Part shown: one piece after another, positions 14,533-31,223 of the stretch
Layout: every line of letters begins with the position of its first letter
Position numbering within the stretch: the stretch's first letter is position 1
Assembly (NCBI GenBank): GCA_965279375.1
Contig: OZ257156.1
Location: 3,488,001 to 3,552,000 of the forward strand
Direction of reading: 5' to 3'
Source: Gemmatimonas sp.
GTDB lineage: Bacteria > Gemmatimonadota > Gemmatimonadetes > Gemmatimonadales > Gemmatimonadaceae
DNA: 64,000 nucleotides
The notes under the pieces: model-generated
Database searches by the model: none
Told to the model about the DNA's origin: nothing
The model's input: only the letters and a program-made list of their open reading frames with translations
Position numbers and translations under genes: made by a program

Positions 14533-15554
14533 GCGCCCCCGACACCGTCTACACGTTCGACATCAGCGAAGAGGCAGGAGAACGCCTCGACCTCGTGGTC
14601 GCTCGTCACTGCGACACCTCCCGCACGCAGGCTGCCACGCTCATCGCGAACGGCAACGTGCTGGTCAACGCGAAGGCGTTCAAGGCGTCGTATCGCACCG
14701 AGCCGGGCGATGCGGTGCAGGTAACCGTGCCGGCCCCGCCCGGACGCGACATCGAGCCCGAGGACATTCCGCTCAACGTCGTCTTTGAAGACGAGCATCT
14801 CGTCGTCATCGACAAGGCCGCTGGCATGGTGGTGCACCCCGCGCCCGGCAACTGGTCGGGGACGCTGGTGAACGCGCTGATGGGTCGTGGGGAGCCGTTG
14901 GCCGAAGGTGGCGGTACGGATCGTCCCGGCCTCGTGCATCGGCTCGACAAGGAAACGTCCGGGCTGTTGGTGGTGGCCAAGACCGACGCCGTTCATCGCA
15001 AGCTCAGTGCGGCCATCGCGGCGCGTCGCGTCACGCGGCGCTACGCGCTTTTGAGCTGGGGACACCTCAAGGCCGATACGCTGCGCGTGGACAAGCCGAT
15101 CGATCGCGATCCCAAGGACCGGACGCGCATGGCGATCGTGGACGGTGGCAAGCAGGCACGCACCGACTTCATGCGGCTGGCCCGCTTTGATTCCGTGGAC
15201 CTGCTGCGCGCGCATCTGCACACCGGGCGGACGCACCAGATTCGCGTCCACCTGTCGTCGGTGGGGCATCCGGTGGTTGGTGACGATACTTACGGCGGGG
15301 GCGGAGGTCGGCGACTCGCGGAGTTGCCGCCCAAGCGGTTCTTCCTGCATGCGGCGTGGCTGCGCTTTCGCCATCCGGTGACGGGAGAGCTGATGGACCT
15401 GCGCTCCCCGCTTCCCGACGACTTGCGGCGCTCCATCGCGGCCATGAGCGGGATGCCGGAACTCGCCACGACGGATGCACCGCTCGATGTCTTCCGATTC
15501 TTCCAGGCCGACGAGCCTGTCGTTCCCGAACCGACCGACGACGAACTCGAATGA
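14529..15554 (+). CDS. rluD: RluA/RluD-family 23S rRNA pseudouridine synthase
   Basis: N-terminal S4 domain, HRLDKETSG catalytic motif, TGRTHQIRVH. Confidence 0.92.
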   Translation: MSAPDTVYTFDISEEAGERLDLVVARHCDTSRTQAATLIANGNVLVNAKAFKASYRTEPGDAVQVTVPAPPGRDIEPEDIPLNVVFEDEHLVVIDKAAGMVVHPAPGNWSGTLVNALMGRGEPLAEGGGTDRPGLVHRLDKETSGLLVVAKTDAVHRKLSAAIAARRVTRRYALLSWGHLKADTLRVDKPIDRDPKDRTRMAIVDGGKQARTDFMRLARFDSVDLLRAHLHTGRTHQIRVHLSSVGHPVVGDDTYGGGGGRRLAELPPKRFFLHAAWLRFRHPVTGELMDLRSPLPDDLRRSIAAMSGMPELATTDAPLDVFRFFQADEPVVPEPTDDELE

Positions 15555-15585: not shown

Positions 15586-16002
15586 ATGTTGGACGACGAA
15601 GATCGGGCTTATGACGTGGTCGTGCGTGTCGCTGACCAACGCTACGGCATCCCGGTGTCGCAGGTCCGGGAGGTGCTGCGCCCGGGAGTGATCACGCGCG
15701 TGCCCGGCGCCCCCGAGATCGTGGTGGGTATCGTCAACGTGCGGGGCGCTGTCGTCACCGTGCTGGACCTTTCCGCACTGTTGACGGGAGAACGTGCCGT
15801 CACAGCGGCCTCGATCGTCCTGCTTGAGCACGGGACCCGCCTGGTTGGGCTGGCCGTGCAATCGGTGCGCGATGTCCGCACGATCCCGAGCGATGCTGAA
15901 GCCAGCAGCCTGGAGGTCGGCGCGGACGAGGACGTCGTACCGTTGGATGCGGCCGCGTTATGTGCGCGGCATCTGCTCTCTTCCGAGGAGATGCGACAGT
16001 GA
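15586..16002 (+). CDS. cheW: CheW coupling protein
   Basis: YGIPVSQVREVL, ITRVPGAP, GIVNVRGAVVTVLDL; start uncertain (15559 GTG or 15586 ATG). Confidence 0.85.
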   Translation: MLDDEDRAYDVVVRVADQRYGIPVSQVREVLRPGVITRVPGAPEIVVGIVNVRGAVVTVLDLSALLTGERAVTAASIVLLEHGTRLVGLAVQSVRDVRTIPSDAEASSLEVGADEDVVPLDAAALCARHLLSSEEMRQ

Positions 16003-16364
16003 GCCGGACGGTACTGATTTGCGACGATGCGATCTTCATGCGCACGATGGTGGGGGATATCCTCACGCAGGCGGGCTTCGAGATCATTGGCGAAGCGGAA
16101 ACGGGTGTGCAGGCGGTCGAGAAGTATCAGCAGCTCCGTCCTGATCTGGTGACGATGGACATCGTGATGCCCGACATGGGTGGCATCGACGCGGTCCGCG
16201 AGATCACCAAGCACGATCCGACGGCGCGCATTCTCATGTGCAGCGCGATGGGCCAGCAGGCGCTGGTGGTCGAAGCGATTCAGGCCGGCGCCAAGGACTT
16301 CGTCGTCAAGCCGTTTCAGCCGAGCCGAGTGCTCGAGGCCGTGACGCGCGTCCTCGCCGCGTAA
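15999..16364 (+). CDS. cheY: Stand-alone response regulator, CheY-like
   Basis: ICDDAIFMR, VTMDIVMPDMGG (phospho-Asp), CSAMGQQ, FVVKPF; resembles Bacillus/Thermotoga-type CheY. Confidence 0.92.
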   Translation: MSRTVLICDDAIFMRTMVGDILTQAGFEIIGEAETGVQAVEKYQQLRPDLVTMDIVMPDMGGIDAVREITKHDPTARILMCSAMGQQALVVEAIQAGAKDFVVKPFQPSRVLEAVTRVLAA

Positions 16365-16398
16365 GCGGCAATCGCTCCGTCGTACCGGGACGCACGCG

Positions 16399-18306
16399 AT
16401 GGACCAAGCCCGATACGCGGAGCTCTTTCGCACCGAGTCGCGCGAGCATCTCGGCGAGATCGATGCGGCGCTGCTCGAGCTGGAACAGACGACCGATCGC
16501 ACGCGCCAGAGTGCCGCGATCGCCACACTGTTTCGCGGCACCCACACCATCAAGGGGATGGCGGGGGCGATGGGCTACGCAGTCGTCGAGCAGGTCGCGC
16601 ACGCACTGGAATCACTGCTCGAACGCATGCGGTCTGCCGGTGCATCGGTTGATCGTGCGCTGACTGCGCTGCTGTTCGATGGGAGCGACGCATTGCGTGT
16701 GGCGCTCGACGAAGCCGGCGCGGGGGATGCCCCCTCGAGTTCAGTGATCGAGGTGCTGGCACGGCTGCGCAGCACTGCGGGCGCGTCCGGTGCCGCTTCG
16801 GCCGCGCCGACGCCTGCGCCCAGTGTACCCTCGCTCGAGTCCGCGTCATCCTCGCCGACTGCAGAGACGGCCGCGATCGAGTCGCGCGTAGTCGACGTCG
16901 CACTGACTGCCGATTGTCCGCTCAAGGGCGTGCGCGCGATGCTGGTGATGGCGAGACTGCGCGCCGTGGCGACGGTGCACGCGGTGCAGCCGCCCGAAGA
17001 ACGCTGGGGCGACGAACGCTTTGACGGGGTTTTCGCCGCAAGCTTCTCCGGCGCGATCGATGCGACCGAACTCGAGGCAAGCCTGCGCGCGGCCGGTGAC
17101 GTTGCCAAGGTCCGCATTCGCGCCGCCGACCAAACGAACTCATCGCGCGCCGACAATGCGGCCATGCGCACAGTTCGTATCGACTTGCGTCGTCTCGACA
17201 CGCTGCTCGATCTGGTCGGTGAGTTGGTGATCACGCGCGACCGTTTGCTGCGCGAGACCGAACGCGCGATCGACTCGGGAGCAAACCGAGCGCTCGCGCG
17301 CGCTGCGCAGGACACGGCGCGACTGGTGAGTGCGTTGCAGGACGAAGTGCTGCAGGCGCGCATGGTGCCCGTTGGCCAGGTGTTCGACCGCTTCCCGCGT
17401 CTCGTGCGTGACGTGGCGCGCGAACTGGGCAAGGAAGTGCACTTCACCACAGAAGGGCGCGACCTCGAACTCGATCGATCACTCATCGATGCCATCGGTG
17501 ATCCGATCGTGCATCTGCTGCGCAACGCGCTCGATCATGGCATCGAGGAGCCCGCGCAGCGACGGGCGGCGGGAAAGCCGTCTACGGGTGAGTTGGTGCT
17601 ACGCGCCGGCCGTGACCGCGCAACAGTGGTGCTGCAGGTGGAGGACGACGGTGGTGGCATCGATCGCTTGGCGATTCTCGCGCGGGCGCAGGAGCAGCAG
17701 ATCGTAAGCGCAGACCTGACCACCCTCGACGACGATCAGCTGCTGATGGTTCTCGCACACCCGGGCTTCTCGACGGCGCGCGCGGTCACGGCGATCTCGG
17801 GACGAGGCGTGGGTGTCGATGTCGTCATGACGCGGGTGCGCGCGCTGGGCGGCACGCTGGAGGTGGAGACGCTCGAAGGGCAGGGCACCGTGTTCACGTT
17901 GCGCCTGCCGGCAACACTGGCCATCACGCGCGCGCTGCTGGTGCACGTAGGTGACGAAACGTACGCATTGCCTGCCGCACATGTGATCGAAGTCGCAGAA
18001 TACACGCCCGGCACGATCGTCACGGAGCAGGCGCACGAGCGCATGATGTGGCGTGATGAAATGCTGCCAGTGGTCCACCTTCGCGAGCGTTTCGGACACG
18101 CGCGCGCCGAACGTGAAACGTTTGTTGCCATCGTCGAATCGGCGGGACGACGCGCGGCATTGTTCGTTGATGCATTGCTCGCGCAACAGGACATCGTGGT
18201 CAAGCCGCTCGACGTGGTGCGTGGAAGTAGCGCGCTGTTCAGCGGCGCGACTGTGCTCGGTGACGGTAGCCCCGCACTCATCGTCGATGTAGGCGCGTTC
18301 TGCTGA
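16399..18306 (+). CDS. cheA: Chemotaxis histidine kinase CheA
   Basis: Hpt FRGTHTIKGMA, P2-like region, dimerisation LDLVGELVI, HLLRNALDHG, EDDGGGID, GFSTA, SGRGVG, C-terminal CheW-like P5. Confidence 0.95.
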   Translation: MDQARYAELFRTESREHLGEIDAALLELEQTTDRTRQSAAIATLFRGTHTIKGMAGAMGYAVVEQVAHALESLLERMRSAGASVDRALTALLFDGSDALRVALDEAGAGDAPSSSVIEVLARLRSTAGASGAASAAPTPAPSVPSLESASSSPTAETAAIESRVVDVALTADCPLKGVRAMLVMARLRAVATVHAVQPPEERWGDERFDGVFAASFSGAIDATELEASLRAAGDVAKVRIRAADQTNSSRADNAAMRTVRIDLRRLDTLLDLVGELVITRDRLLRETERAIDSGANRALARAAQDTARLVSALQDEVLQARMVPVGQVFDRFPRLVRDVARELGKEVHFTTEGRDLELDRSLIDAIGDPIVHLLRNALDHGIEEPAQRRAAGKPSTGELVLRAGRDRATVVLQVEDDGGGIDRLAILARAQEQQIVSADLTTLDDDQLLMVLAHPGFSTARAVTAISGRGVGVDVVMTRVRALGGTLEVETLEGQGTVFTLRLPATLAITRALLVHVGDETYALPAAHVIEVAEYTPGTIVTEQAHERMMWRDEMLPVVHLRERFGHARAERETFVAIVESAGRRAALFVDALLAQQDIVVKPLDVVRGSSALFSGATVLGDGSPALIVDVGAFC

Positions 18307-18395
18307 GCGAACACGCGCCTGTAGTCCAGCTGGATTCCGAACGACTACCGATCTGACGTGATCGTTGCGCTGCCCGAACTGAAAGCGGAGTGAAG

Positions 18396-19016
18396 ATGGA
18401 GGCGATTCGGTCGCTCAAGACGATACAGCTCGATGCGCTGCGCGAAACGGCGAACATCGGCGCGGGGCACGCCGCAACGGCGCTGTCGCAGATGACGGGC
18501 AGCACGATCATGATCAAGGTGCCCGCGATCAGCATCGCCAGCATCGATGATCTCCCCGCGCAGTTCACGGACGAAGAGGAGCCGGTCGCCGCGGTGCTCA
18601 TGCACATGCTCGGCGATTTGAGTGGACGCACCCTGCTCGTCTTTCCGCGTCCGACGGTGATGCGTCTTGCGGAACTGATGCTGCGTCGTCCCGTGGGCTC
18701 GTCGCTCGCGCTCGGTGAGCTGGAGACCTCGGCCATCAAGGAAGCGGGCAATATTCTCAGCGGCGCGTACATGAACGCGCTCAGCGACTTCCTCGGCATG
18801 CTGCTCCTCCCGTCACCGCCCACGCTGGTGATCGACATGTCCACGGCCGTGTTGAGCAGCGCCTTCGCCGAGTTTGCACCGGACCCGGACGCGATCATTT
18901 GCGTCGAGAGCGAGTTCATGCTCACCGAGACCGGTCACACGCTCCGCGGATTCTTCTTGCTTTTGCCGGACCCCGCGTCGCTGCAGGTGATGTTGCGCGC
19001 ACTGCGTCTCGCGTAA
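18396..19016 (+). CDS. cheC: CheC phosphatase
   Basis: Two E-x2-N motifs: ETANIGAGHAATALSQM and EAGNILSGAYMNALSD. Confidence 0.92.
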   Translation: MEAIRSLKTIQLDALRETANIGAGHAATALSQMTGSTIMIKVPAISIASIDDLPAQFTDEEEPVAAVLMHMLGDLSGRTLLVFPRPTVMRLAELMLRRPVGSSLALGELETSAIKEAGNILSGAYMNALSDFLGMLLLPSPPTLVIDMSTAVLSSAFAEFAPDPDAIICVESEFMLTETGHTLRGFFLLLPDPASLQVMLRALRLA

Positions 19017-19039
19017 CCCGCAGGTCAGGCGCAGTGCAG

Positions 19040-21676
19040 ATGGAGCCGATGGCCCCCGGAGGACGCGACGCCGAGCTGCTGCGCGCGATGCTGACGCGCA
19101 TCGATCAGCAGGACCCGGGTGCGTTCAACAACCTCGGCGTGCTGTATCACAGCAAGGGACTCTACGCCGAGGCGGTGGACGCCTTCCTGCGCGCGCTTGC
19201 CCTCGATCCTCGCATGCGGACGGCGGCGCGCAACCTCGAGATTGCGGCGACACGCGACGGTGCCTGCGACTCGCGTCTTGCGAGTTTAGCGGCCCGGCTG
19301 GAGATCGATGCAGACGACGTGGTGGCGCTGCGTGAGCGTGCGCGGCTGCTGCGACTCATCGGCCGCCACACGGAGGCCTCGCAACAACTCGACGCGCTGA
19401 TCGCGGCCGATCCCGACGATACCGCCTCACTCTTCGAGCGCGGACTGATCGAGCAGCGTGCGGGCGACCTGCGTCGCGCGCAGCGGTGGTTCGAGCGCGC
19501 AGTGAACGTGTCCTCCGGTGATCCGATTCCGCGGCTGCATCTCGCCGAGGTGCTGTACCAGCGAGGGCAGAACGAGCAGGCGCTGGAGGCGCTCGAGTCG
19601 CTGTTGACGTTGTGGCCGAACATGGCCGATGCGCACCTGCTGCACGGCTTCGTGCTCGGCGACATGGGGCGCCACGAGGCCGCACGCGATGCGTCGCGCA
19701 AGGCCTCTGCGCTCAACCCGTCGTTGCAGACACTGCAGCCCGATCTCTCGCTCGACGGTGGTGTGGCTCCGATTCCGTACGCACCCGTTCAGCGCGATGT
19801 CCCCGCTGAAGGCGCGTTGGCACGCTACGGACTTGGTCTGGCGTTTCGTCAGCGTGGCTACTTCGACGAAGCCCGCCGCGAGTTCGAGCGAGCGCTCGCG
19901 CAGGGTGAGGATGCGCGCCTTGCACGACACGCGATTGCCGAGCTCGATCTCGTCGCCGGTCGTTTCGCGGATGCTCGCGCCGCGTACGAACAGCTGCTGC
20001 AGGAGCAGGCCGACCAGCCGCGGCTCTGGAACGAGCGCGGCGCGGCGCTGCATCAGGGCGGTGATGTCGAAGGCGCGGCGGAGAGCTATCGACGTGCGCT
20101 GCGCATCGATCCGCGCTACGCAATTGCGTACAACAATCTTGGCGTCGCGCTTTCCGATCTCGGCGAGGCGTCGGCCGCGCGCGAGGCACTCTTGCGTGCG
20201 GTGGAGCTGGATGCTGCGCTCGCACGCCCCAAGCTGAATCTGGCACGCTGGTACGTGCGCCATCGCGATCCACTGGCCGCGCTGTCGTTGTTGCGCGAGT
20301 TCGTGGCGTTCCACGCGGACAATGCTGACGCGTGGCATGACCTGGGTGTCGTCTTTCAGCTGCTGCATCGCACCGATGAAGCCCGCGATGCGCTGGCGCG
20401 TGCCATCGAGCTGCGTCCCGATCACGCCGAGGCGCGGTACGCGCTGGCGCAGGTGCTGGCATCGTTGGGAGATGACGATGGCGCGCTGCGCGAGACGCAG
20501 CGTGCGTTGGGGCTCGCCCCGGTTCGTGTGGAGCCGCGACTGATCATCGTGATCGCGTTGCAACTCGAGTGTCCTGAAGCGGCTGGTCTGCTGGATCTGC
20601 TGGCGATCGCCGCGGATGTGCCGCTTGCCGGTGTGTCGCTCGACGAGCAGACGGTCGCCGGGTTGCTGCCGCAGTTGGAGCCAGTCGCGCCAATTGCCAT
20701 CGTCGACGATGTGGCCGCGCGAATCACGCGATTCTGCGAAGAGGGCGATGCCTTCGCCGCGCGGCGACTGCATGGCGAGGCCGGCGATCGTTACGCAGCC
20801 GCGCGCGGCTTACTGGAGGGCGAAGGGCTTCCTGCGATCAGCGGCGACGGCTCGCTGGGGCCGCTGTGGCATCGTGCGGTCGTTGGCGAGGCGCGCTCGC
20901 TCTGCCTGCTTGGCTCGGGACATCATGCGATGTCGCGACTGCGCGGTCTCGCGGCGCAGTATCCGGAGGACGCCGAAGTTGTGGCGCTCTTCGCGTCGAG
21001 TGCTGCCGCGGCTGCAGCCCGTCAGGAGGCACCGGCTGAGGTCGTACCAGTGCTGCTGCGTCGGCTGCTGCGGCTGGAAACCGACAGTGCGGCACTGCTG
21101 CACTTCGCAGGCGACACGGCGGTGAGTATCGGAGATGGCGTCCTCGCGCTCGCCTGCTACCGGCGTGCGCTCGCGATCGACCCAACTCGGCCATCGCCGC
21201 GCGTGGCCATCGCGCGCGTGTTACGTCATCGGGGCGATCTGCAGGCCGCACGGCTGGAGCTCGTAGCGGCGCTGGCGACTGCGCCGGAGTTCCGCGATGC
21301 GCTGTTGGAGTTGGCGCGCGTGAACCTCGCGACGCGAACGGTGCGCGAGTCTGTCGCCGGACTCACGCGACATCTCGCTGCCGTACCGACAGACCTCGAC
21401 GCGCTCGTGCTGCTGATCGAACTGCTCGTGGCAGTTGACCGTGATGCTGACGCGCGTGTGGCGGTCAGTCGCGTGCTCCGGCATGACGCAGAGCATGTCG
21501 GTGCGCTCTGGTTTGACGGGGTTTTGCTCGCTCGACAGTCGCGCATGCGCGAAGCCGTCGATCGGTGGATGCGGGTGCAGCGTTCTTCCGATGACGAATT
21601 CGCGCCGCGTGCGACGAAGGCATTGGCGAAGGTCGAGGAACGTGAGCAGCTGAGCGATCTGCGGAAGGCTTCGTGA
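19040..21676 (+). CDS. Large TPR-repeat protein (~880 aa)
   Basis: Many TPR units (AFNNLGVLY, AYNNLGVAL, AWHDLGVVF, ARYGLGLAF); no signal peptide; start inferred. Confidence 0.85.
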   Translation: MEPMAPGGRDAELLRAMLTRIDQQDPGAFNNLGVLYHSKGLYAEAVDAFLRALALDPRMRTAARNLEIAATRDGACDSRLASLAARLEIDADDVVALRERARLLRLIGRHTEASQQLDALIAADPDDTASLFERGLIEQRAGDLRRAQRWFERAVNVSSGDPIPRLHLAEVLYQRGQNEQALEALESLLTLWPNMADAHLLHGFVLGDMGRHEAARDASRKASALNPSLQTLQPDLSLDGGVAPIPYAPVQRDVPAEGALARYGLGLAFRQRGYFDEARREFERALAQGEDARLARHAIAELDLVAGRFADARAAYEQLLQEQADQPRLWNERGAALHQGGDVEGAAESYRRALRIDPRYAIAYNNLGVALSDLGEASAAREALLRAVELDAALARPKLNLARWYVRHRDPLAALSLLREFVAFHADNADAWHDLGVVFQLLHRTDEARDALARAIELRPDHAEARYALAQVLASLGDDDGALRETQRALGLAPVRVEPRLIIVIALQLECPEAAGLLDLLAIAADVPLAGVSLDEQTVAGLLPQLEPVAPIAIVDDVAARITRFCEEGDAFAARRLHGEAGDRYAAARGLLEGEGLPAISGDGSLGPLWHRAVVGEARSLCLLGSGHHAMSRLRGLAAQYPEDAEVVALFASSAAAAAARQEAPAEVVPVLLRRLLRLETDSAALLHFAGDTAVSIGDGVLALACYRRALAIDPTRPSPRVAIARVLRHRGDLQAARLELVAALATAPEFRDALLELARVNLATRTVRESVAGLTRHLAAVPTDLDALVLLIELLVAVDRDADARVAVSRVLRHDAEHVGALWFDGVLLARQSRMREAVDRWMRVQRSSDDEFAPRATKALAKVEEREQLSDLRKAS

Positions 21677-22842
21677 GCCTCGAAGGACGCATCCGCGACC
21701 TCGGCCTGCCGGAGGTCTGCCAGCTGCTCGGGGCGAGCCGCAAGACCGGCACGCTGCGCGTGCTCGCACCTCTTCGAGCCCGCGACGCCGAGATTCGGTT
21801 CATAAGTGGACAGATCGCCGACGCCCGACAGTGGCAGACTGACGTGCCTCTGAACGAGCTGCCGGCGTCGGTGCCTACGCCCGATGCTCGTGCGGTCGAG
21901 GCGTGCGTGCTCGAAGTCCTCACTTGGGGGGATGGCGAGTTCCAGTTTGTGGCCGAGAAGGGAGCTACCCGATCGGCCAGTCCGGTTCGATTGAACGTGG
22001 AGCCGCTGCTCGTTGAGGCGGCGCAACGCGCCGAGGTGTGGCAGCGCGTGCGCGATCGCATCGCGGGCCCGCAGGCAGTGCCTGCCTTCGTCGACATCGA
22101 TCCGCAACAGCTCCCATTGCTACGGCTCGTGCCGCAGGAGTGGGAAGTGCTCACCCGGGTCGATGGTGCGCGGGATCTGCAGGCGCTCGCCGCGGTGCTG
22201 GGGCGCAGTTTGCTCGACGTCGCGCAGATCGTGCACGCGCTCGTCGGCGCGGGCGTGCTCGCCATTCGCGATCTGACCATCGCGCCACGGCGACACCCCA
22301 CGCCGCCGACGCAGTTGGCCGTGCCGTCATGGCCGGACGCGTTCGATCCCGACGACGATGAGCGTGTGCTCGACGCCGGTGACCTTCTCGCCGACGCGTT
22401 CCGCGCCGACGCGCTCGACGCCGGAGATTCGAGTGACATCGACGACGCCGTCTTCGATCCGATTGCCGCTGGTGTGACGGATGCGGACGGAATTCCCCGT
22501 CGACTAACGCCGCGCACCACCGACGTTATCGCCGTTTCGGATCGAGTATTGCAGGCGGCGTCGACGCTCGAATTCCCCAGTGAAAATGCCGTTGCGTCCT
22601 CGCCAGTGCAGCAGTCCTTGTCGCAGGAGACGCGGCAACGTCGTGCCAGCGGGGTGAGCGCAGTGACGCTGTGCCTGCATGGTGACGATGCCGCCCGACA
22701 TGGTGACTTGGCGGGTGCGTTGACGTGCTGGAGTGCGGCGCTACGTGCCGATGCGACGTCCATCGACGCGGATCGGGTGCGCGAGGCGATTGCGCTTGCT
22801 GCTCGTCTGCACGCGTTGCTGCACCCGTCGGGACGAAGCTAG
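21673..22842 (+). CDS. DUF4388 (PATAN-like) domain protein
   Basis: LEGRIRDLGLPEVCQLLGASRKTGTL...W.DGEFQF...LLVEAA; then HTH-like segment EWEVLTRVDG and acidic linker. Confidence 0.8.
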   Translation: MSLEGRIRDLGLPEVCQLLGASRKTGTLRVLAPLRARDAEIRFISGQIADARQWQTDVPLNELPASVPTPDARAVEACVLEVLTWGDGEFQFVAEKGATRSASPVRLNVEPLLVEAAQRAEVWQRVRDRIAGPQAVPAFVDIDPQQLPLLRLVPQEWEVLTRVDGARDLQALAAVLGRSLLDVAQIVHALVGAGVLAIRDLTIAPRRHPTPPTQLAVPSWPDAFDPDDDERVLDAGDLLADAFRADALDAGDSSDIDDAVFDPIAAGVTDADGIPRRLTPRTTDVIAVSDRVLQAASTLEFPSENAVASSPVQQSLSQETRQRRASGVSAVTLCLHGDDAARHGDLAGALTCWSAALRADATSIDADRVREAIALAARLHALLHPSGRS

Positions 22843-22867
22843 AACGCAGTCAGAGAGGAGCGGGCGA

Positions 22868-23506
22868 ATGCCCATCGTAGATCACGCCACGCGGCTGATC
22901 ACATGCAAGCTGGTCTACTACGGACCGGGTCGATCGGGAAAGACGACGAACCTGACCTACCTGCACTCGGCGTTGCCGAGCGGGCAGGTGGGCTCGCTCA
23001 CGTCACTCGCGACTCGCCGCGACCGCACGCTCTTCTTCGACTACCTGCCGGTGGATCTCGGAACGGTCGGCGCGTACAAGGTGCGCTTTCAGCTCTACAC
23101 CGTTCCCGGCCAGCCGTACTACCGCAGCATTCGCCAGCTTGTGCTGCAGGGCGCTGACGGCGTCGCGTTCGTTGCGGACAGCCAGCGCCATCGCTGGGAA
23201 GACAACATCGACAGCATGCAGGACATGCACGCGAACCTGGCCGAGCACGGCATCGACGCGCGCGCGCTCCCGATGGTCATGCAGTACAACAAGCAGGATC
23301 TTCCGCCATCGCTGGCGGCCACCGTCCCCGAGCTGTCGCGCGCGCTGAACTTTCGCGGCGTTCCTGAGTTCGGCGCCGACGCTCCGAATGGCATCGGCGT
23401 GTTCGACACGCTGCGCGCACTCGGCATGCGCGTGCTGCGTCGCCTTGGCGCCGACAGCGCAGCGGAAGACGAACGGCATGACGGCATCACGGCAGGTGCG
23501 GCATGA
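22868..23506 (+). CDS. mglA: MglA-family small Ras-like GTPase
   Basis: KLVYYGPGRSGKTTNL, DRTLFFDYLP, QLYTVPGQ, DGVAFVADS, QYNKQDL, all MglA signatures; AGAGGAG RBS. Confidence 0.9.
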   Translation: MPIVDHATRLITCKLVYYGPGRSGKTTNLTYLHSALPSGQVGSLTSLATRRDRTLFFDYLPVDLGTVGAYKVRFQLYTVPGQPYYRSIRQLVLQGADGVAFVADSQRHRWEDNIDSMQDMHANLAEHGIDARALPMVMQYNKQDLPPSLAATVPELSRALNFRGVPEFGADAPNGIGVFDTLRALGMRVLRRLGADSAAEDERHDGITAGAA

Positions 23507-25467
23507 CACCGCACCCGGAGGAGCCGGCCTACCGCTTCGACAACTTCGTGGTGGGCGCGTCAAACCGACTCGCGTCGTCCGCAGCCATGGCCGTGGCCGA
23601 TGCACCGGGGGCGGCGTACAATCCGTTGTTCGTCTACGGGGACTCGGGGCTGGGCAAGACGCATCTCGTCGCGGCGATCGCCCATCGCGCGCTGGCGTCG
23701 CGTCCGGAGTTGCGTGTCGAACTGAGTAGCGGTGAGGAGCTGGCCGAGCGATTGCACCAGGCGATCGCGACCGGGCAACAGGAGCAGTTCACCGAGCGCT
23801 ATCGACAGGTGCAGCTGCTGGTGCTCGATGACGTGCAGTTTCTCGCCGGCCAGCGGGAGACGCAGAGTGAGTTGCTGCGGCTGTTCAATCTCATGCAGGG
23901 CGCCGGCCGTCAACTGGTGATGACCAGTGATCGACCACCCAGCGAAATCCCGGACGTCGATCAGCGCCTGCTGTCGCGCTTCTCCGGTGGGTTGATCGTG
24001 GATGTGGGCGCGCCCGATTACGAGATGCGTCTGGCCATTCTGCGAAACGCGGCCGACGTACGTGCCCTGCAGTTTGGCGACGGCGTGCTCGAGGAAATGG
24101 CGCGACTTGCCTTCGGCAACGTGCGTGAACTCAAGGGCGCGCTGAACAAGATCACGGCATTCCAGCAGCTCGATGGCACGGTCATCACGCCCAATGACGT
24201 GCGCGCCGTGCTGGGCGAGCGCGCGTCGGTGGCGTCCGCTCCCGACCGTCGCGACGTCGCGCCGACGATGCTTGGCGCGGAGTATGAAGGCTTCCTCGCC
24301 GATGTGCTGCAGGAGGTCGAGACGCGCGTGGAGAAGTGGCGCGTGGTGTTGGGTGAAGCCTGCAGCTATTGGCGTGCGGAAGGGTTTGTCACGCAGGTAT
24401 TGGAGCGTGCGGTCGCGCATCCTGTCCAGCCCGACGTGAACGGACTGCTCGCCACGTTCAGCGCGGCGGTCGAGCATCTGCGCGCGATCGAGGCGCAGGC
24501 GGTGCTCCTCGATCCTGCGCTCCGCGGCCACAGTGCCTTTCGCAATCCCGAAGCGGTGGCGGAAGCGCAGGCGTTGCTCGATCGTGCGATGGCGACTGCC
24601 ATTCCGCTGCCTGCGCCCAATGCGGCGTTTACACGAGATGCTCTTGAAGTGGGCAGCGCCAATCAACTGGCGCTCAAGGCCTTCGACGCCGTGGTCGAGC
24701 ATCCGGGCGCGCGCTACAACCCGCTCTTCGTGCACGGCCCGAGTGGAGTGGGGAAGACGCACGTGCTGCACGCATTGGGCAATGCCATGCGCGCGGCGTG
24801 GCCCGAGAAGGCGATCGCGTGCGTGACCGGCGTGGCCTTCGGGGACGAATTGGTGCAGGCGCTGCAGGAGGGCGGGGTGGAGCGGTGGCGTGCGCGCTAT
24901 CGCGCCGCTGACGTGCTGCTGGTGGACGATGTCCATTCTCTGCGCGACCTCGAGCGGACGCAGGAAGAACTCTTCCACCTCTTCAATCACGTGTACGATC
25001 GCGGGGGGCAGATCGTGCTCACGGCCGATCGTCCTCCGCGTGAGTTGACGGGCTTTGCCGATCGACTGCGGTCGCGATTCGAAGGCGGCCTGGTGGTGGC
25101 GATGCATGGCCCCGATCGCGCACTCCGCGAACGACTCGTCTCGCGCTGGCTCGCTGAAGCGGCTGCTGAGCCCACGCAGGAGTTGGTCGCGATGCTCGCT
25201 GATCGCGACGTCAGCAGCGTGCGCGAGCTCAACGGACTCTTCAAGCGCATCGAAGCCGCCTCCGATCTGAACGGTTTTGCGATCAGCCTCGAGTCCGCGC
25301 AGCGCGCACTCGGCATTCAGCCGACGCGCGTCACCCGTCGTGTGCCCACACGTGTCCTATCCACCGGCGCGGACGGAGTGTCCATCGACGACTTCTTTCT
25401 CGATCGCGAGAAGATGATTCTCGATTGGCCCGAGATCGGCGGACGCGTGATCGAGGAGCTGCGCTGA
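23503..25467 (+). CDS. DnaA/Hda-family protein with two tandem DnaA AAA+ domains, lacking DnaA domains I and IV
   Basis: Two copies of YNPLF..G..G.GKTH, DDV, T.DRPP, RL.SRF.GGL and .VREL.G; no C-terminal HTH 'RDHTTV' motif. Confidence 0.88.
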   Translation: MTPHPEEPAYRFDNFVVGASNRLASSAAMAVADAPGAAYNPLFVYGDSGLGKTHLVAAIAHRALASRPELRVELSSGEELAERLHQAIATGQQEQFTERYRQVQLLVLDDVQFLAGQRETQSELLRLFNLMQGAGRQLVMTSDRPPSEIPDVDQRLLSRFSGGLIVDVGAPDYEMRLAILRNAADVRALQFGDGVLEEMARLAFGNVRELKGALNKITAFQQLDGTVITPNDVRAVLGERASVASAPDRRDVAPTMLGAEYEGFLADVLQEVETRVEKWRVVLGEACSYWRAEGFVTQVLERAVAHPVQPDVNGLLATFSAAVEHLRAIEAQAVLLDPALRGHSAFRNPEAVAEAQALLDRAMATAIPLPAPNAAFTRDALEVGSANQLALKAFDAVVEHPGARYNPLFVHGPSGVGKTHVLHALGNAMRAAWPEKAIACVTGVAFGDELVQALQEGGVERWRARYRAADVLLVDDVHSLRDLERTQEELFHLFNHVYDRGGQIVLTADRPPRELTGFADRLRSRFEGGLVVAMHGPDRALRERLVSRWLAEAAAEPTQELVAMLADRDVSSVRELNGLFKRIEAASDLNGFAISLESAQRALGIQPTRVTRRVPTRVLSTGADGVSIDDFFLDREKMILDWPEIGGRVIEELR

Positions 25468-27188
25468 TGGCCATCCGCGGCAACTTGAATGAGGCGAGTC
25501 TCGCCGACGTGCTGCAGCTCCTGGCCCTTGGTCAAAAGACCGGATGCCTCAGCGTGGCACGCGAAGGCAGCTTCGGCACCATCCACTTCGACGGTGGACG
25601 CATCGTCTTCGCGTCCATCGTCAACCGGCGCGATCGCCTTGGCGATCGGCTGGTACGCAACGGTGCTATCGCCGCCGATACGCTGGCGCGACTGGTGGGC
25701 ACCGCAGCGCCCAACGACGATCGAGCACTCGCTGTGGCGTTGCTCGATCGCGGTCTCGTGGACTTCGACCAGCTCGAAGCGATCTACCGGGTACACGTCG
25801 AAGAGTCGGTCTACTTCCTGCTCGGTTGGACACAGGGGACGTTCACCTTCGAGGCTGCGCCGCGCGCCGACGAGTCGGACATCCTCGTTTCCATCAGCGC
25901 AGATTCGCTGCTGCTGGAGGGGGCTCGTCGCGTCGACGAGTGGACGCTGGTCGCGAAGAAGATCCCGAGTCTCGATCTGATCTTCGAAGCGGACATCACG
26001 CGTCTCGCCGGCCGCGAGGCGCCGCTGAGCGCGACGCAGGAGAAGCTGCTGCCACTGCTCGATGGCACGCAGGACGTCAACAGCATCATCGAACGTTCTG
26101 GGCTCGGCGAGTTTGAGGTAGGCAAGGCGCTCTTCGGCTTGCTGACCGCGGGATACGTGCAGCGTGTCGGGCGCAGCGCGGCACGGCGTCCGCCGCCGCC
26201 AGAGAGCCGTGTGGCGGAGCACCGAAACCTTGGCGTCGCGTTCTATCGCACGGGGCTGTACGACGAGGCGCAGCGGGAATTCCGCCGCGTGCTCGAACTG
26301 CGCGACAGCGACAGTGCGGCGCGATTCCACTTGGGTCTCGTGCATCTGCGTCGCGGCGAGTGGGATGAAGCCGTCTCGGTGCTCCAGCGAGCCACCGCGG
26401 AACCGGACGCGCCGGCCGCGGCCTTTCACAATCTCGCGTACGCCTGCGAGCGGCTCGGACGATTGGACGATGCCCGAGCCATGCTGGCCGAGTCGGAGCG
26501 TCGTCAGACCGCGGGCGACCCGCGCACCCAGCTGTCGTTGGCAATCGTCGCGCTGACGGCGGGTGAGTTGGTGGCGGCGGAATCGCACTTGGCGTCGGCG
26601 CGCGAGCTCTGGGGCGCGCGCCAGCCGTCGGCGGCGTGGTTTCACGCGGCGGGGCTCACGGCGGCGCTCGCCGGCGACTTGCCACGCGCCACGCGCGTGC
26701 TGGAGGAAGGGATCGGCATGCACCCCCATGCGGCGACCTTGCACAACAATCTCGCGGTGGTGCACGAACGCCGTGGCAGCTACGAACTCGCTGCTCGTAC
26801 CATCGAGCACGCGCTGCTGGAGGACGCCAACGCTGCGCATCTGCACAAGAACCTTGGCGACTATCTGTATCGAGCGCAGAGGTACGACGAGGCGTTCGAG
26901 GCATTCACACGCGTCGTGCGCCTCGACGCCACGCACGGCGCCGATGTGCACCTCAAGCTTGGCAACATTCTCTATCGCCGCGGGGAGCTGCGTGACGCGC
27001 AACTCGCCTGGGAGCGGGCACAAGTGATCGAGCCACACAACGCTATCGTGCGAGCCAATCTCGACGCATTGGGACGTGCCGACCTTCGCGAGTCTTCGCG
27101 CGGGAGCCGGGCCACTTCACCCGCGCTGCGCACGGTCACTGATCCGTCGCCCGCGTCAACGACAGCGATGGCCGAGGAAGCGGCATGA
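25467..27188 (+). CDS. DUF4388 + TPR-repeat protein
   Basis: IRGNLNEASLADVLQLLALGQKTGCL...WTQGTFTF...LLLEGARRVDEW, followed by multiple TPRs. Confidence 0.82.
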   Translation: MAIRGNLNEASLADVLQLLALGQKTGCLSVAREGSFGTIHFDGGRIVFASIVNRRDRLGDRLVRNGAIAADTLARLVGTAAPNDDRALAVALLDRGLVDFDQLEAIYRVHVEESVYFLLGWTQGTFTFEAAPRADESDILVSISADSLLLEGARRVDEWTLVAKKIPSLDLIFEADITRLAGREAPLSATQEKLLPLLDGTQDVNSIIERSGLGEFEVGKALFGLLTAGYVQRVGRSAARRPPPPESRVAEHRNLGVAFYRTGLYDEAQREFRRVLELRDSDSAARFHLGLVHLRRGEWDEAVSVLQRATAEPDAPAAAFHNLAYACERLGRLDDARAMLAESERRQTAGDPRTQLSLAIVALTAGELVAAESHLASARELWGARQPSAAWFHAAGLTAALAGDLPRATRVLEEGIGMHPHAATLHNNLAVVHERRGSYELAARTIEHALLEDANAAHLHKNLGDYLYRAQRYDEAFEAFTRVVRLDATHGADVHLKLGNILYRRGELRDAQLAWERAQVIEPHNAIVRANLDALGRADLRESSRGSRATSPALRTVTDPSPASTTAMAEEAA

Positions 27189-27664
27189 GCGAAATCCAGG
27201 TTCGTATTGCCGACTATGCGGTGGCCGGCAGTGAGTCGGTGCTCGTGACCAACGGCATCGGCTCGTGTGTCGCGATCGCGCTGTATGAGCGCGAGGCGCG
27301 GGTGGGAGCGCTGGCGCACATTCTGCTCCCCAACGAGGTGCTCACCGCGTCGCAGGAACCGCCGGGCAAGTGCGCATCATCGGCGATTCCGGTGATGGTG
27401 CGGCGCATGCGTGAGCTCAAGGGCACTGGTGAGATCCAGGCGCGGCTGATTGGCGGCGCCAGCATGTTCGCGCCTTTGCTGATTCCCGGTGCGCTCTCGC
27501 TCGGCGCGCGGAACATCGCAGCCGCGCGGGCCGCACTCGCTGCGGCGGACATTCCCGTGGTGGGCGAAGACGTCGGCGGCGATCACGGACGGTCGGTGCA
27601 CTTCGCGCTCGAGGATGGCAGTCTGTTGGTCAGGTCCGTGGCGAAGGGCGATGTCCGACTCTAG
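27185..27664 (+). CDS. cheD: Chemoreceptor glutamine deamidase CheD
   Basis: TNGIGSCVAI (catalytic Cys), AHILLP (His), GGASMF, GARN, DVGG..GR. Confidence 0.9.
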   Translation: MSEIQVRIADYAVAGSESVLVTNGIGSCVAIALYEREARVGALAHILLPNEVLTASQEPPGKCASSAIPVMVRRMRELKGTGEIQARLIGGASMFAPLLIPGALSLGARNIAAARAALAAADIPVVGEDVGGDHGRSVHFALEDGSLLVRSVAKGDVRL

Positions 27665-28793
27665 CGCTCCACTTCGTCGCGTCGGCGAGGGCTCCCGGCC
27701 ACGCGTGCTCGTCGTGGACGACAGCGCGTTCATGCGTCGCATCGTCAGTGATGTCGTTGCATCGAGCGGCGAGTTCGAAGTGGTGGGGACGGCGCGCGAC
27801 GGCGTGGATGCGTTGCGACAGGTGACGCGCCTCGATCCAGACATCGTCACGCTCGACGTGGACATGCCCGAGATGGATGGCTTGTCCGTGCTGCGCTGCA
27901 TCATGCAGGAGAATCCGCGCGCCGTCGTCATGCTCAGTGCAGGTGGAGCAGATGGCGGGGCTGATGCGACGCTGCGCGCGCTGGAACTCGGCGCCGTGGA
28001 GTTCGTGCGCAAACCGTCGGGAGCGATCAGTCTGGATCTCGAAGACGTGTCGGAGCAGCTGCTCGACGCACTCCGCGCCGCCGCGTGCATCAACCTCGAT
28101 ATTCTTCCGCGCCCGGTCGATCGCGGTGCTATCGCCGTGGAGTTGCCGCCGCACCAGCAGCACTCAGGACGTCGGGCCACGCAGCTCGTGTGCATCGCGG
28201 CCTCCACGGGTGGCCCTGCGGCACTGGCCAAGGTCATTCCCAAGCTGCCGCGGTTTGCGCAGACGGCGGTTGTGATCGTGCAGCACATGCCCGCCGGATT
28301 CACCGCGAGCTTCGCCGCACGGTTACGCGGCGCCTCGCGCCTGCCGGTGCACGAGGCGCGCAATGGCGATGCGTTGTTTGCGGGGCACGTCTATGTCGCG
28401 CCGGGCGGCTTTCATCTGCGTGTGGGCGGTCCGGCCGGTCTGCCGGCGCTCTTTCTGGACTGCGGCCCGACGGAATGGGGCGTGCGCCCTGCCGCCGATC
28501 CGCTGTTCAAGTCTGCGGTGCCGTACTTCGGCGCGGCGATCATTGGCGTGGTCATGACCGGCATGGGCTGCGACGGCGCGGCTGGCTTGGCCGCCGTGCG
28601 CAACGCTGGCGGTCTGGCGCTCATTCAGCAGCGCGATACGGCCGTGATTCCCGGCATGCCCGATGCCGCGCTGCGCACCGCAGGTGCCGATCGCATTGTC
28701 ACGCTGGACGAAATGGCAGACGCGATCGTCGAGTGCAACGCTCTGCGCGAGTCGAGTGCGAGCGATTCGTCGCTCTTCGAGGTCGCGTCGTGA
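27651..28793 (+). CDS. cheB: CheB methylesterase (REC + esterase)
   Basis: VVDDSAFMR, TLDVDMP; ASTGGP, VQHMP, TGMGCDG (Ser-His-Asp triad). Confidence 0.93.
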   Translation: MSDSSAPLRRVGEGSRPRVLVVDDSAFMRRIVSDVVASSGEFEVVGTARDGVDALRQVTRLDPDIVTLDVDMPEMDGLSVLRCIMQENPRAVVMLSAGGADGGADATLRALELGAVEFVRKPSGAISLDLEDVSEQLLDALRAAACINLDILPRPVDRGAIAVELPPHQQHSGRRATQLVCIAASTGGPAALAKVIPKLPRFAQTAVVIVQHMPAGFTASFAARLRGASRLPVHEARNGDALFAGHVYVAPGGFHLRVGGPAGLPALFLDCGPTEWGVRPAADPLFKSAVPYFGAAIIGVVMTGMGCDGAAGLAAVRNAGGLALIQQRDTAVIPGMPDAALRTAGADRIVTLDEMADAIVECNALRESSASDSSLFEVAS

Positions 28794-29323
28794 GCACCGG
28801 TCAGTTCCGCTCGACGACCATGTTCGCGCCCCGCGCCCGCGCATCGGTTCCAGCGGTGGATCGCGCGACGTTCGTTGTCTTTGCGATGGCCGATCGGCGC
28901 TTCGCCGTGCCGGTCGAATCGGTGGAGCGGGTGCTGCGGGACTCGGTGGCGGCAGGTCCGGCGACCACTGCTGCGTCGGTGAACTACGGTGGCCAGTCGT
29001 ATGCCGTGGCCGATCTGGCCAGCGCGCTCGGTGTGGAGTTTGCACCCACGGCGGCGTCGCGTGTGCTGGTGCTGTCGGGCGGTGGAGAGCATCGCGCGGT
29101 GATCGTGGATCGGGTGCTGGAAGTCGCCACGATCGATGCCGGTATCGTGGAGGCGGCGGACGCGGTGCACGACGGGATCGCGGCGCTGCCGAACGCGGGC
29201 GTGCGCGGCGTCTTCACACGCAATGGCGCAGCGGTGATTGTTCTCGATGTCTCGCGCCTCCTCGACGAGACGTTGCACACCGCCCACGGCCCCGCCGCTT
29301 TCCGCAAGGAACGTTCGTCATGA
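28790..29323 (+). CDS. cheW: Second CheW-like protein
   Basis: FVVFAMADRRFAVPVESVERVL, VADLASALG, AVIVDRVLEV, IVLDVSRLL; GTG overlaps cheB stop. Confidence 0.72.
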   Translation: MSTGQFRSTTMFAPRARASVPAVDRATFVVFAMADRRFAVPVESVERVLRDSVAAGPATTAASVNYGGQSYAVADLASALGVEFAPTAASRVLVLSGGGEHRAVIVDRVLEVATIDAGIVEAADAVHDGIAALPNAGVRGVFTRNGAAVIVLDVSRLLDETLHTAHGPAAFRKERSS

Positions 29324-30180
29324 CGAGCAGCCCGCTGTCCGAACTGCAATCGCTGCGCGCACGACAGGCCGCGATCGCGTCGGCCTTGTCGGCCAGCCCC
29401 AGCGCGGAATCGCGAGCACAACTCAAGCAGGACATCATCGCGCTCTTTCGCGAGACCGATGCGGTCTACGCAGCGCTGGGCGAGCTAAAGTCCGACGTGA
29501 AGGCGTTGGCGGAGACGTGGAAGCAATTGGACGGCCGAAGCGCATCCAGTCCGCACGCCGGCGTCTCATCGCGGGTCGATCACTTGGGCGCGTCGACCTT
29601 CGTCGAGAAGGGGTGGTCCAAGCTCTCGCTCGGCGATGCGGCAGGCGCTGAAGTGGCGCTGCGGCGCGCGTTGGAACTGGCGCCGGCGGATGACGAAGCG
29701 GAAACGCTGCTCGGCTGGGCGCAGATGCTCCAGGAGCAGTATGACAGTGCGTTGCTCACGTTCCACAACGTGCTCATGCGCGACCCGCAGAACACGCTTG
29801 CCCGCACGAACGTGGGATTCATCTGTCTGCGCAAGAAGAGCTACGGCGAAGCCATCGAACATCTTTCGCGCGCCATTCGCATCGACAGCGATCGCAAGGC
29901 CACGCTGTACGCTCATCTCTATCTCGGCATGGTCTACCGCGAGCGTGAGATGTACGCCGACGCAGAACTGTTCTTCCGCAAGGCGATCGAGCTCGGACCG
30001 AATCTGATTCAGGCGTGGTACGAATTGGGTCGTGCCCGCTGGTTCGCCGGGGAGCACGCCGGTGCGCGCGATGCGTGGCGTGCCGGTGCGGAGGCCAACA
30101 AGTTCAATCCATGGGGAAAGCGCTGCGCCGAAACGCTGGAGTCGGTCGATCGTGGGGAGGCTCCGCCGCGCGACGCGTAG
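29320..30180 (+). CDS. Coiled-coil + TPR-repeat protein
   Basis: N-terminal amphipathic helices, then TPRs (ARTNVGFI, AHLYLGMVY, AWYELGRA). Confidence 0.8.
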   Translation: MTSSPLSELQSLRARQAAIASALSASPSAESRAQLKQDIIALFRETDAVYAALGELKSDVKALAETWKQLDGRSASSPHAGVSSRVDHLGASTFVEKGWSKLSLGDAAGAEVALRRALELAPADDEAETLLGWAQMLQEQYDSALLTFHNVLMRDPQNTLARTNVGFICLRKKSYGEAIEHLSRAIRIDSDRKATLYAHLYLGMVYREREMYADAELFFRKAIELGPNLIQAWYELGRARWFAGEHAGARDAWRAGAEANKFNPWGKRCAETLESVDRGEAPPRDA

Positions 30181-31223
30181 TTGCCTCGCTCGCGATGGTG
30201 GCGGGCCTGGCTTTCACCGCGATGTCTCAAGAGCCGATCGCCTTGCGCGGCGGCGTCCAGCTGAGTCGTGGCCGCTTTACCGTAGTGGCCGACCAGCGCG
30301 ATGCGCGACTCGCACAGTCGCTGCTCAATTCCGCGCTCGCGCAGGACAGCTTTCCGGGGCTGCCGCGCCCCAAGGCTCAAGTCCTGATCGGCGTCGCGCC
30401 CAACGCGGCGCGCTTTCGCTCCTGGGTGGGACCCAACGCGCCAGAGTGGGGCGCTGCCATCGCGTTCCCTTCGCAGCAGCGCATCGTGATGCAGGGCAGT
30501 GGAGCCGGGAGCGACGCGGGCGATCCACTGGTGGTGCTGCGCCACGAACTGGCGCATCTGGCGCTGCACGAGGCGCTGGGCCCTCTGCCGCCGCGCTGGT
30601 TCGACGAGGGCTACGCCAGTGTGAGTGCGCGTGAGTGGAGCCGAGAGCGCACCATCGAGACGTCGAGCGGGATGGTGTTCAAGTCGCTCCCCAATCTTGA
30701 GGCACTCGAAGAGGGCTTCGCGGGGCACGAAGGCGAGGCGAACTGGAGCTATGCGCTGGCCTATCGCGCCGTGGATGAGCTGGCTGCACTCGATTCCCGC
30801 AACGGCCTGACGAATTTTTTCGCCGAGTGGAAACGCTCAGGGACGTTCGAGCGGGCAGTGCGTAGCGCGTACGGGATGACGGGCGAGCAGTTCGACAAGC
30901 ACTGGCGCACGCAGACTCGGCGCCGGTACGGTGCGCTGGCCGTGCTGACGGATGCGTCCGCGGCCATCGGGTTCTTTGGGCTGCTGCTGGGGCCGCTGTT
31001 CTGGATGCGTTGGCGTCGGGACCGCCGCCGGCTGGAGGCGATGCGGGTGGCGGATCGAGCGCAGGAGCGCGCGGCGCGGGAGAGCGCGCTGGAGGCGATT
31101 TTGGCCGGTGAGACCGGTGACCAACCGGTGGGTTCGACGAGTTCGGTGAGTGAAGGCACGTCGGCGGAGGGACCGTCGGCGGAGGCCGGGTCGGCGCCTT
31201 CGAGCACGCCAATTTCCCACTGA
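30111..31223 (+). CDS. Exported/membrane HEXXH metallopeptidase (peptidase MA-like)
   Basis: LRHELAH and PRWFDEGYA gluzincin pattern, N-terminal hydrophobic signal, C-terminal TM helix; start uncertain (30111 or 30195). Confidence 0.75.
   Translation: MGKALRRNAGVGRSWGGSAARRVVASLAMVAGLAFTAMSQEPIALRGGVQLSRGRFTVVADQRDARLAQSLLNSALAQDSFPGLPRPKAQVLIGVAPNAARFRSWVGPNAPEWGAAIAFPSQQRIVMQGSGAGSDAGDPLVVLRHELAHLALHEALGPLPPRWFDEGYASVSAREWSRERTIETSSGMVFKSLPNLEALEEGFAGHEGEANWSYALAYRAVDELAALDSRNGLTNFFAEWKRSGTFERAVRSAYGMTGEQFDKHWRTQTRRRYGALAVLTDASAAIGFFGLLLGPLFWMRWRRDRRRLEAMRVADRAQERAARESALEAILAGETGDQPVGSTSSVSEGTSAEGPSAEAGSAPSSTPISH

Follow-up and report, generated by a model that had tools for sequence, protein, structure and literature searches.

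A conserved Gemmatimonas operon interleaving chemosensory genes with those for an MglA-type GTPase and a tandem DnaA-type ATPase

Introduction

What does an operon sense, and what does it act upon, when its chemotaxis genes are interleaved with those for a polarity GTPase and for a protein built of two DnaA-type ATPase modules? Such an operon lies at 15586-30180 of a 64,000-nucleotide stretch of the Gemmatimonas sp. contig OZ257156.1 (assembly GCA_965279375.1, positions 3,488,001 to 3,552,000), the whole of which is referred to here as the window. A first-pass annotation had read its 13 genes as a single unit joining a Che core, an MglA GTPase, PATAN (DUF4388) and tetratricopeptide repeat (TPR) proteins and a DnaA-clade tandem ATPase. 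That reading stands: the gene order is conserved in relatives, and the operon is real and apparently undescribed as a unit, the modules themselves being known. The tandem DnaA-type ATPase, predicted to be tethered to the product of the adjoining gene, is a new element, and surface behaviour is a likelier target of the operon than swimming or replication. No description of the operon or of the ATPase was found in literature searches, the coverage of which left subscription journals mostly outside.

Gene organization of the operon

The 13 open reading frames (ORFs) all lie on the plus strand, and the ORF check and Pfam domains agree with the order first read. The claim that stop and start codons mostly overlap is likewise borne out, eight of the 12 internal junctions overlapping by 1, 4 or 14 nt and the remaining four being gaps of 23-83 nt. 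The genes, and two segments of the ATPase gene discussed below, are as follows.

15586..16002, plus strand: cheW, 138 aa; Pfam CheW at E 7.6e-24, matching only profile positions 3-98 of 138
15999..16364, plus strand: cheY, Thermotoga-type single receiver; phospho-Asp and Lys motifs intact; top Protein Data Bank (PDB) match 1TMY, 174 bits
16399..18306, plus strand: cheA; Pfam Hpt-P2-dimer-HATPase-CheW; His and N, G1 and G2 boxes intact
18390..19016, plus strand: cheC phosphatase (Pfam); two ExxN motifs
19040..21676, plus strand: TPR1, 878-aa TPR scaffold (Pfam TPR), with a putative SgmX-like role
21673..22842, plus strand: DUF1, PATAN/DUF4388 protein (Pfam); MshEN-like insertion gone in the window's lineage
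22868..23506, plus strand: mglA, MglA-family GTPase (Pfam Arf-like); 220 bits to 5YMX; no coupled mglB in the window
23503..25467, plus strand: tandem DnaA-type AAA+ protein, 654 aa; Pfam Bac_DnaA twice, E 1.8e-105; linker 260-366 helical
24283..24333, plus strand: motif A of the ATPase, about residues 261-277 around F264/L265/D267; kept in the mini-gene form
25399..25464, plus strand: motif B, the ATPase C-terminal tail, residues 633-654; E636, W642 and E651 near-invariant; predicted docking in the DUF2 TPR groove
25467..27188, plus strand: DUF2, PATAN/DUF4388 with degenerate MshEN-like insertion and TPR; constant partner of the DnaA-like gene
27185..27664, plus strand: cheD (Pfam); catalytic Cys/His motifs present; missing from 10 of 34 close loci
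27651..28793, plus strand: cheB, receiver and methylesterase (Pfam); Ser/His/Asp motifs
28790..29323, plus strand: second cheW, diverged; Pfam CheW at E 3.5e-16
29320..30180, plus strand: TPR2, 286 aa, N-terminal helices and TPR (Pfam)

Catalytic motifs are intact in CheA, CheY, CheC, CheD and CheB, and the CheY is 73-96% identical to orthologs in 55 other genomes. Profile searches of the window gave no methyl-accepting chemotaxis protein (MCP), CheR or roadblock match, and the matches to FliG and PilM also all lie outside it. The first-pass statement that no such gene is present is right for the window and does not extend to the genome, where an mglB-mglA pair and flagellar and type IV pilus genes are found elsewhere.

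Conservation and gene loss among Gemmatimonadota

Eighty genomes, hand-picked from 301 for spread and contiguity, were searched for co-occurrence. The loci called close here are 34 Gemmatimonadota loci together with four genus-level regions, the relatives being Gemmatimonadaceae and Gemmatimonas records; on a tree made by a quick method the 10 close rows placed there, window included, form one group. Five alphaproteobacterial loci (L069-L073), in which one domain and none of the operon neighbours matched, were dropped from all counts.

A gene-neighbourhood survey, which the first-pass annotation had proposed, found the order conserved throughout Gemmatimonadetes, the interleaved arrangement with its overlapping codons being kept across families f1-f5 and f8. 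A chance arrangement is excluded because of this conservation. The genes cheY, cheA, cheC, mglA and TPR1 are present in 23/23 of the close loci spanning them. Counted over the loci spanning the respective sites, roadblock genes occur in 30/32 distant loci versus 0/30 close ones and cheR in 24/32 versus 0/34, while the figures for cheD are 24/32 distant and 24/34 close and those for cheB 26/32 and 31/34. In distant relatives three roadblock-type genes stand between DUF1 and mglA, and cheR stands between DUF2 and cheD; the third roadblock-type gene has no Pfam match and resembles its own genome's mglB at 34% (E 3e-10). Judged by this gene content, the absence of MglB and CheR is a lineage-specific loss of ancestral genes, and the idea that it is a design feature of the system is not supported. 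A cognate cheR elsewhere in the host genome (G000) was considered and rejected, the best matches reaching 34-38% and all lying in other clusters or fusions; among 41 genomes of the genus, one has a match at 50%, the level usual for orthologs.

By hand count, about 190 of the 301 phylum genomes have a best match to the ATPase at E 1e-64 or better (G155, G056, G180 and G096 are included in the tally). Atlas and homolog searches for a range outside the phylum returned Gemmatimonadota clusters, a few single-domain relatives and ordinary DnaA. For a cultured species, Gemmatimonas groenlandica, a close ortholog has been recorded. Several variants of the locus were seen in passing. An AAA_22 ATPase, presumably ExeA-like, is inserted after cheB in 3/32 distant and 0/34 close loci (L074:15482-16282, L083:3770-4567). 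In genus g39 (L091:10546-11148, L125:7948-8553) the operon MglA is strongly diverged, at 34-36% identity, and TPR1 is reduced to about 380 residues. In a locus of another class (L100:187-8874) a single-domain DnaA-like gene and a TPR gene precede a receiver, cheR and two cheW genes by about 3 kb.

A probable receptor encoded in trans

The host genome, 5.3 Mb on one contig and 99.95% complete, encodes 14 MCPs, 4 CheR domains and 3 CheA proteins, and one long MCP tracks the operon CheY, so that the description of the system as receptor-less was mistaken. The gene for this MCP (4HB-HAMP-signal, G000 C1:2355529-2357232) overlaps a Peripla_BP_6 gene, and the pair (L131, 2355529-2358350) lies 1.15 Mb from the operon. 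The protein aligns without a gap over 178 residues to 2CH7, a receptor that we take to be of the 44H class. CheY of the operon type was found in 56 of the 80 genomes; an ortholog of the long MCP occurs in 49 of these 56 and in none of the 24 CheY-negative genomes, and the binding-protein gene adjoins it in 28 of the 30 loci fetched. The periplasmic binding protein and long-class MCP are thus the likely input of the operon; their co-occurrence with it is an observation, their binding a presumption.

The remaining receptors of the host are mostly of another kind. Eleven of the 14 MCPs are short-class, all with the same 14-residue gap following the hairpin; of the others, one is part of the third che cluster and two are longer. 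These two are without the indels of the others, and one of them is 44H-like and in trans to the operon. The gene for the second long-class MCP (L132, G000 C1:1204150-1205889) is about 4 kb from dnaA, and its product has several hydrophobic helices and a HAMP domain with no recognised sensor domain.

Chemosensory class, flagella and pili

The presence of both CheC and CheD is associated with chemosensory class F1. The features of this class found here are a P2 domain of Thermotoga/Bacillus type in CheA, CheC together with CheD, and the 44H-like receptor in trans. The P2 domain was matched by Pfam at E 2.1e-10, the origin of the model being given in PMC10542144. A classification of CheA by the sign of its PDB scores was dropped since the test did not separate classes: the operon CheA scored 298 bits to 1B3Q versus 279 to 8C5V, and another host CheA gave the same sign, 305 versus 273.

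FliG is present in 29 of the 56 CheY-positive genomes and without a match in 27 (92-100% complete), of which 25 have MCPs, and four FliG-positive genomes have no operon CheY. In the window's genus FliG was present in 9/9 tested genomes and the host is flagellated, flagella being also recorded for G. phototrophica (PMC9862903). The host has a separate che cluster beside fliC/fliD (genes named from sequence), the CheA of which scores 357 bits to that of E. coli versus 320 to that of Thermotoga. As a general role, the pathway of the operon is probably not flagellar. The type IV pilus genes of the host include PilM, an MshEN-bearing ATPase and PilB/PilT/PilC-like genes, and by analogy these pili are a possible target.

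The MglA, PATAN and TPR proteins

Aligned to 5YMX (220 bits), the operon MglA retains the G1 loop, G21, R53 (the intrinsic Arg), T54, Q82 and G4, residues whose roles are described in PMC3199381. There is no mglB within four genes of it, roadblock matches being absent from the window. A second mglA with an mglB lies beside dnaX-recR in the host genome, and an orphan roadblock gene beside a single-domain receiver (G000 C1:3663714-3664067) is a possible in-trans partner for the MglA that has no MglB. For TPR1 the best 60 of the 75 matches in a PDB search are generic TPR proteins only.

The PATAN domain of DUF2 has a helical insertion in which a relaxed MshEN motif (defined in PMC5013675) was found in 32 of 39 distant loci, 13 having two and 19 having one. 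The DUF2 of close loci has one motif in 7/37 and two in none, and under a criterion of two 24-residue motifs the window's DUF1 and DUF2 have none. Binding of c-di-GMP by DUF2 is plausible ancestrally and doubtful in the window's copy, as far as the motifs tell. SopA of Myxococcus xanthus is not a PATAN/MshEN protein (PMC11580455).

The tandem DnaA-type ATPase

The first AAA+ module (D1) of the 654-aa protein scores 199 bits to DnaA domain III and 28 bits to Hda, and its top structural matches are DnaA domain III. In the predicted structure (pLDDT 83, pTM 0.47) the two AAA+ modules are accompanied by a helical linker and a tail helix. In D1 the Walker A and B motifs, sensor I, Arg finger and sensor II are each kept in 68-70 of 71 two-domain copies. 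In the second module (D2) the Walker motifs are kept in 62-65, the Arg finger in 68, sensor I in 37 and sensor II in 43 of the 71, and the lid is deleted in some Gemmatimonas copies. D1 would thus be the catalytic site and D2 the arginine-finger donor.

The roles of the DnaA residues, including the H/B residues that bind single-stranded DNA (ssDNA), are described in PMC10325909. The equivalents of V211 and R245 were mapped by their 34- and 40-residue spacing from the Arg finger; in D2 the former is hydrophobic (I/V) in 66/71 copies and the latter Arg in 64/71. D1 is without the H/B residues, having His in 51/71 and Glu in 63/71 at the same positions. The protein begins at the AAA+ domain, and no DnaA_N or Bac_DnaA_C, marking domains I and IV, was found among the best 25 of the 27 families matched. 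A clamp-type motif, sought by pattern, was found in 0/81 sequences. The canonical dnaA is a single copy (L004, G000 C1:1198743-1200161) located 2.3 Mb from the operon, and the linker of its product has a short Q-x-D-x-F stretch resembling a sliding-clamp-binding motif. There is only one DnaA-domain match in several single-contig genomes (G057, G063, G070, G079 and G081).

Predicted docking of the ATPase tail in DUF2

The DnaA-like gene of five genomes, from genera g5 and g9, is reduced to 60-86 codons (about 70 residues), with motifs A and B kept and DUF2 still abutting. The mini form, seen as a 60-73-residue hypothetical family at L114:8927-9148, L115:3903-4085 and L117:8930-9145, is a remnant of the tandem gene, and 813 database proteins of 33-128 residues match it. 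The DUF2 of these five genomes has no MshEN insertion. The joint loss of AAA+ domains and insertion (5/5 mini loci) was not counted as co-evolution, the five forming one clade and the loss one event on the tree. A single-domain ATPase whose tail resembles this one is encoded in two genomes of other classes, and the gene after it is TPR-only and matches DUF2 residues 246-535.

The mini protein and DUF2 of one of the five genomes (G035) were modelled as a complex, which scored an ipSAE of 0.87 versus 0.17 for the best of three controls; the score mark was reached by 116/157 solved and 2/215 mismatched pairs, rough counts for which our own alignments were used. At least 70% of contacts are common to the runs and the partner pLDDT is at least 53; TPR residues 230-408 are in contact with tail residues 55-73 and with a few residues of motif A. 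The model supports the predicted docking of the ATPase tail in the DUF2 TPR groove.

Relation to known systems

The operon shares with the Dif system of M. xanthus and the Dif-like systems of Geobacter a CheW-CheY-CheA-CheC core, a P2-type CheA, a long-class (44H) receptor and a non-flagellar context, and with those of Geobacter also CheD. The cheW-cheY-cheA-cheC series of Dif is found in the window, the positions of difD and difG in it being presumed; a 44H MCP inside the cluster is not found, there being no MCP in the window. DifC is MXAN_6694 and DifE MXAN_6692 (PMC3945109), and the Geobacter clusters add CheD and CheR (PMC2577667). The operon differs from both in that its receptor is encoded in trans, beside a periplasmic binding protein, and that its genes are interleaved with those for MglA, the PATAN-TPR proteins and the tandem ATPase. 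Among known systems, a Dif/F1-like one is nearer to these che genes than Frz; FrzE is a CheA-receiver hybrid (PMC3945109), whereas the operon CheA has P2 and no receiver.

MglA G21, R53, T54 and Q82, a large TPR neighbour and, in the operon's relatives, roadblock partners are shared with the MglA/MglB and SgmX system of M. xanthus, in which MglA and the TPR protein SgmX control pili (PMC7519303). In M. xanthus and Bdellovibrio mglA is not near its signalling partners (PMC4316618), whereas the window's copy is in an operon with them and has no coupled mglB. PATAN genes occur near some MglA genes, and among the Group 1 loci GAU_1409 of G. aurantiaca is tabulated as PATAN>MglA>-PATAN>, the same local order as in the operon (PMC4316618 and its supplement). 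The table leaves the middle gene unnamed and lists no che genes, and in the main text of that paper DnaA and chemotaxis have 0 occurrences.

With DnaA and Hda the operon ATPase shares the initiator-clade AAA+ fold; it differs in having two AAA+ modules per chain, neither domain I nor IV, no clamp motif and a predicted TPR-binding tail, and in being dispensable in some lineages. The tandem RLGxxhhxxG-type motifs of the MshEN receptor recur inside the DUF2 of distant relatives, inserted there in a PATAN domain and not in a pilus ATPase, and the window's two proteins have no full motif.

Function of the operon

The explanation that we favour, at a little under an even chance, is that a Dif/F1-like chemosensory pathway without a flagellar role is wired to a polarity module of the MglA type, the tethered ATPase playing an accessory part. 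The binding protein and the long-class (44H-like) MCP, encoded 1.15 Mb away, would be the input. CheW-CheA would phosphorylate CheY, CheC would reset it, and CheB/CheD would tune the receptor, the cognate CheR having been lost; here it is the motifs that are seen and the activities that we infer from them. Output would pass through TPR1, DUF1 and DUF2 as adaptors to MglA, which would mark a pole and most likely govern type IV pili or some related behaviour on surfaces. Ancestrally the operon would have had three roadblock proteins regulating MglA, and PATAN proteins with MshEN motifs of the c-di-GMP type, features lost or degenerate in the window. The DnaA-derived protein, tied by its tail to the TPR groove of DUF2 as modelled in a relative, would be an ATP-dependent accessory and not a replication initiator.

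Several observations weigh against this explanation. No receptor ortholog at E 1e-30 was found in 7/56 CheY-positive genomes (G129, G276, G023, G038, G042, G068 and G153), two of which (G038 and G042) are without any MCP match, and the 80 genomes are hand-picked and related, which makes the MCP co-occurrence a pattern and not a statistic. The modules are separable: five f7 genomes retain the ATPase and DUF2 alone, G204 retains the MglA block without cheY, cheA or cheC, and G071 and G073 retain che genes with no mglA, TPR1, DUF1 or roadblock genes. A pilus output rests on analogy, and PilM, present in 55/56 CheY-positive genomes and in 77/80 overall, does not discriminate. As for the docking, the complex was folded for the G035 pair with our own alignments and transferred to the window by motif conservation, its interface is no more conserved than other TPR positions (0.57 versus 0.57; core 0.60), and TPR-peptide complexes are a common solved type.

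A pathway with Dif-like output, in which the kinase acts by way of an orphan regulator on exopolysaccharide, adhesion or biofilm, CheY and CheC serve as a phosphate sink and the MglA/PATAN block feeds in pilus or c-di-GMP information, is unlikely, though the next most probable reading. The operon core matches the homologies of DifC/D/E/G (PMC4671073); DifE alone of the eight M. xanthus CheAs has a response-regulator-binding domain, and DifA is of the 44H class (PMC3945109). M. xanthus Dif has been suggested to be CheR-independent (PMC2577667), as the window's lineage now appears to be, and G042 keeps cheY alone at the operon site. The operon has, however, no polysaccharide genes, its MCP lies outside it, and the Dif-like cluster as described in the available part of PMC2577667 names no MglA, PATAN or AAA+ gene. 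We consider it still less probable, and rather improbable as such, that the che core, the MglA block and the ATPase-DUF2 pair are independent, partly decaying modules that share a promoter and not a pathway. The blocks have been lost separately, and in close loci cheR and the roadblock genes are gone, cheD and cheB are missing from some and MshEN is degenerate; against such independence stand the interleaved overlapping order of f1-f5 and f8, the five genes found in every spanning close locus and the intact catalytic motifs. That the operon serves ordinary flagellar chemotaxis of class F1, its other genes being passengers, is very improbable. It would account for a CheY most like that of T. 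maritima, for P2, CheC, CheD and the 44H-like receptor, and for the FliG found throughout the tested genus genomes; it agrees poorly with the 27 CheY-positive genomes having no FliG match, the four FliG-positive ones lacking this CheY and the other che cluster of the host beside flagellin.

A coupling to the cell cycle, as the first-pass annotation had suggested, would have the tandem DnaA-like protein bind ssDNA or co-assemble with DnaA, recruited to the pole by DUF2, and so tie initiation or origin position to polarity. We think this improbable, though somewhat less so than independent modules. What support the proposed coupling to replication or division retains is weak: D1 is of the DnaA type (199 bits versus 28 to Hda), the V211 and R245 equivalents are kept in D2 and the Arg finger in both domains (68/71 each), and the ATPase and DUF2 persist in the five f7 genomes without che genes or mglA. 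On the other side, domains I and IV and the clamp motif are absent, canonical dnaA is 2.3 Mb away, the H/B residues of D1 are lost, several single-contig genomes have a single DnaA-domain match, and one lineage has retained the che genes but lost both AAA+ domains, leaving the tail-only mini-gene. A bolder form, in which the initiator ATPase has been recruited as a tethered output of a chemosensory and Ras-like switch, its covalent D1-D2 dimer forming a DnaA-type filament that grips ssDNA or caps DnaA, held at the pole by the tail and gated by MglA and ancestrally by c-di-GMP, seems to us equally improbable. If the filament did form, the direct targets of a chemosensory pathway would be initiation, the position of the origin or DNA imported through pili.

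If the favoured explanation is right, a single operon holds a chemosensory control of the MglA switch that is scattered over the genome in Myxococcus, and a DnaA-derived tandem ATPase is used outside initiation. Little genetic work has been done on Gemmatimonadota, and about half of the genomes sampled that carry the pathway have no flagellar motor gene to steer. The natural deletion series (roadblocks with cheR, AAA+ domains with the MshEN insertion, che genes) points to testable interfaces.

Flanking genes and transcription

The operon is bounded by two conserved neighbours on the same strand.

14529..15554, plus strand: rluD, conserved upstream neighbour, ending 31 nt before cheW
30195..31223, plus strand: Peptidase_MA_2 gene, conserved downstream neighbour, starting 14 nt after TPR2

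Given these distances, transcription of the operon probably runs past the 13 genes, from rluD upstream to the peptidase gene downstream, and read-through into it from the ileS-dksA-lspA-rluD string may take place. A promoter scan found 0 sigma-70 sites versus 1.6 expected and is uninformative. Terminator-like sites numbered 10 versus 10.4 in shuffles, a weak result, the longest stem being at 31362-31384.

The divIVA gene at 8127-8765 and rsmH, the first gene of the dcw cluster, at about 33660 confirm the positions given in the first-pass annotation, in which their nearness had been taken as a functional hint. The rluD-to-peptidase position is unchanged whether the operon is whole, reduced to two genes (f7) or nearly gone; nearness to divIVA and dcw therefore reads as an inherited position and was rejected as functional evidence. 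A tRNA-Val(TAC) gene lies at 31463-31536, between the end of the operon and a TPR gene upstream of the dcw cluster. Two tandem lspA genes are found at 13466-14532, where distant loci spanning the site show one copy.

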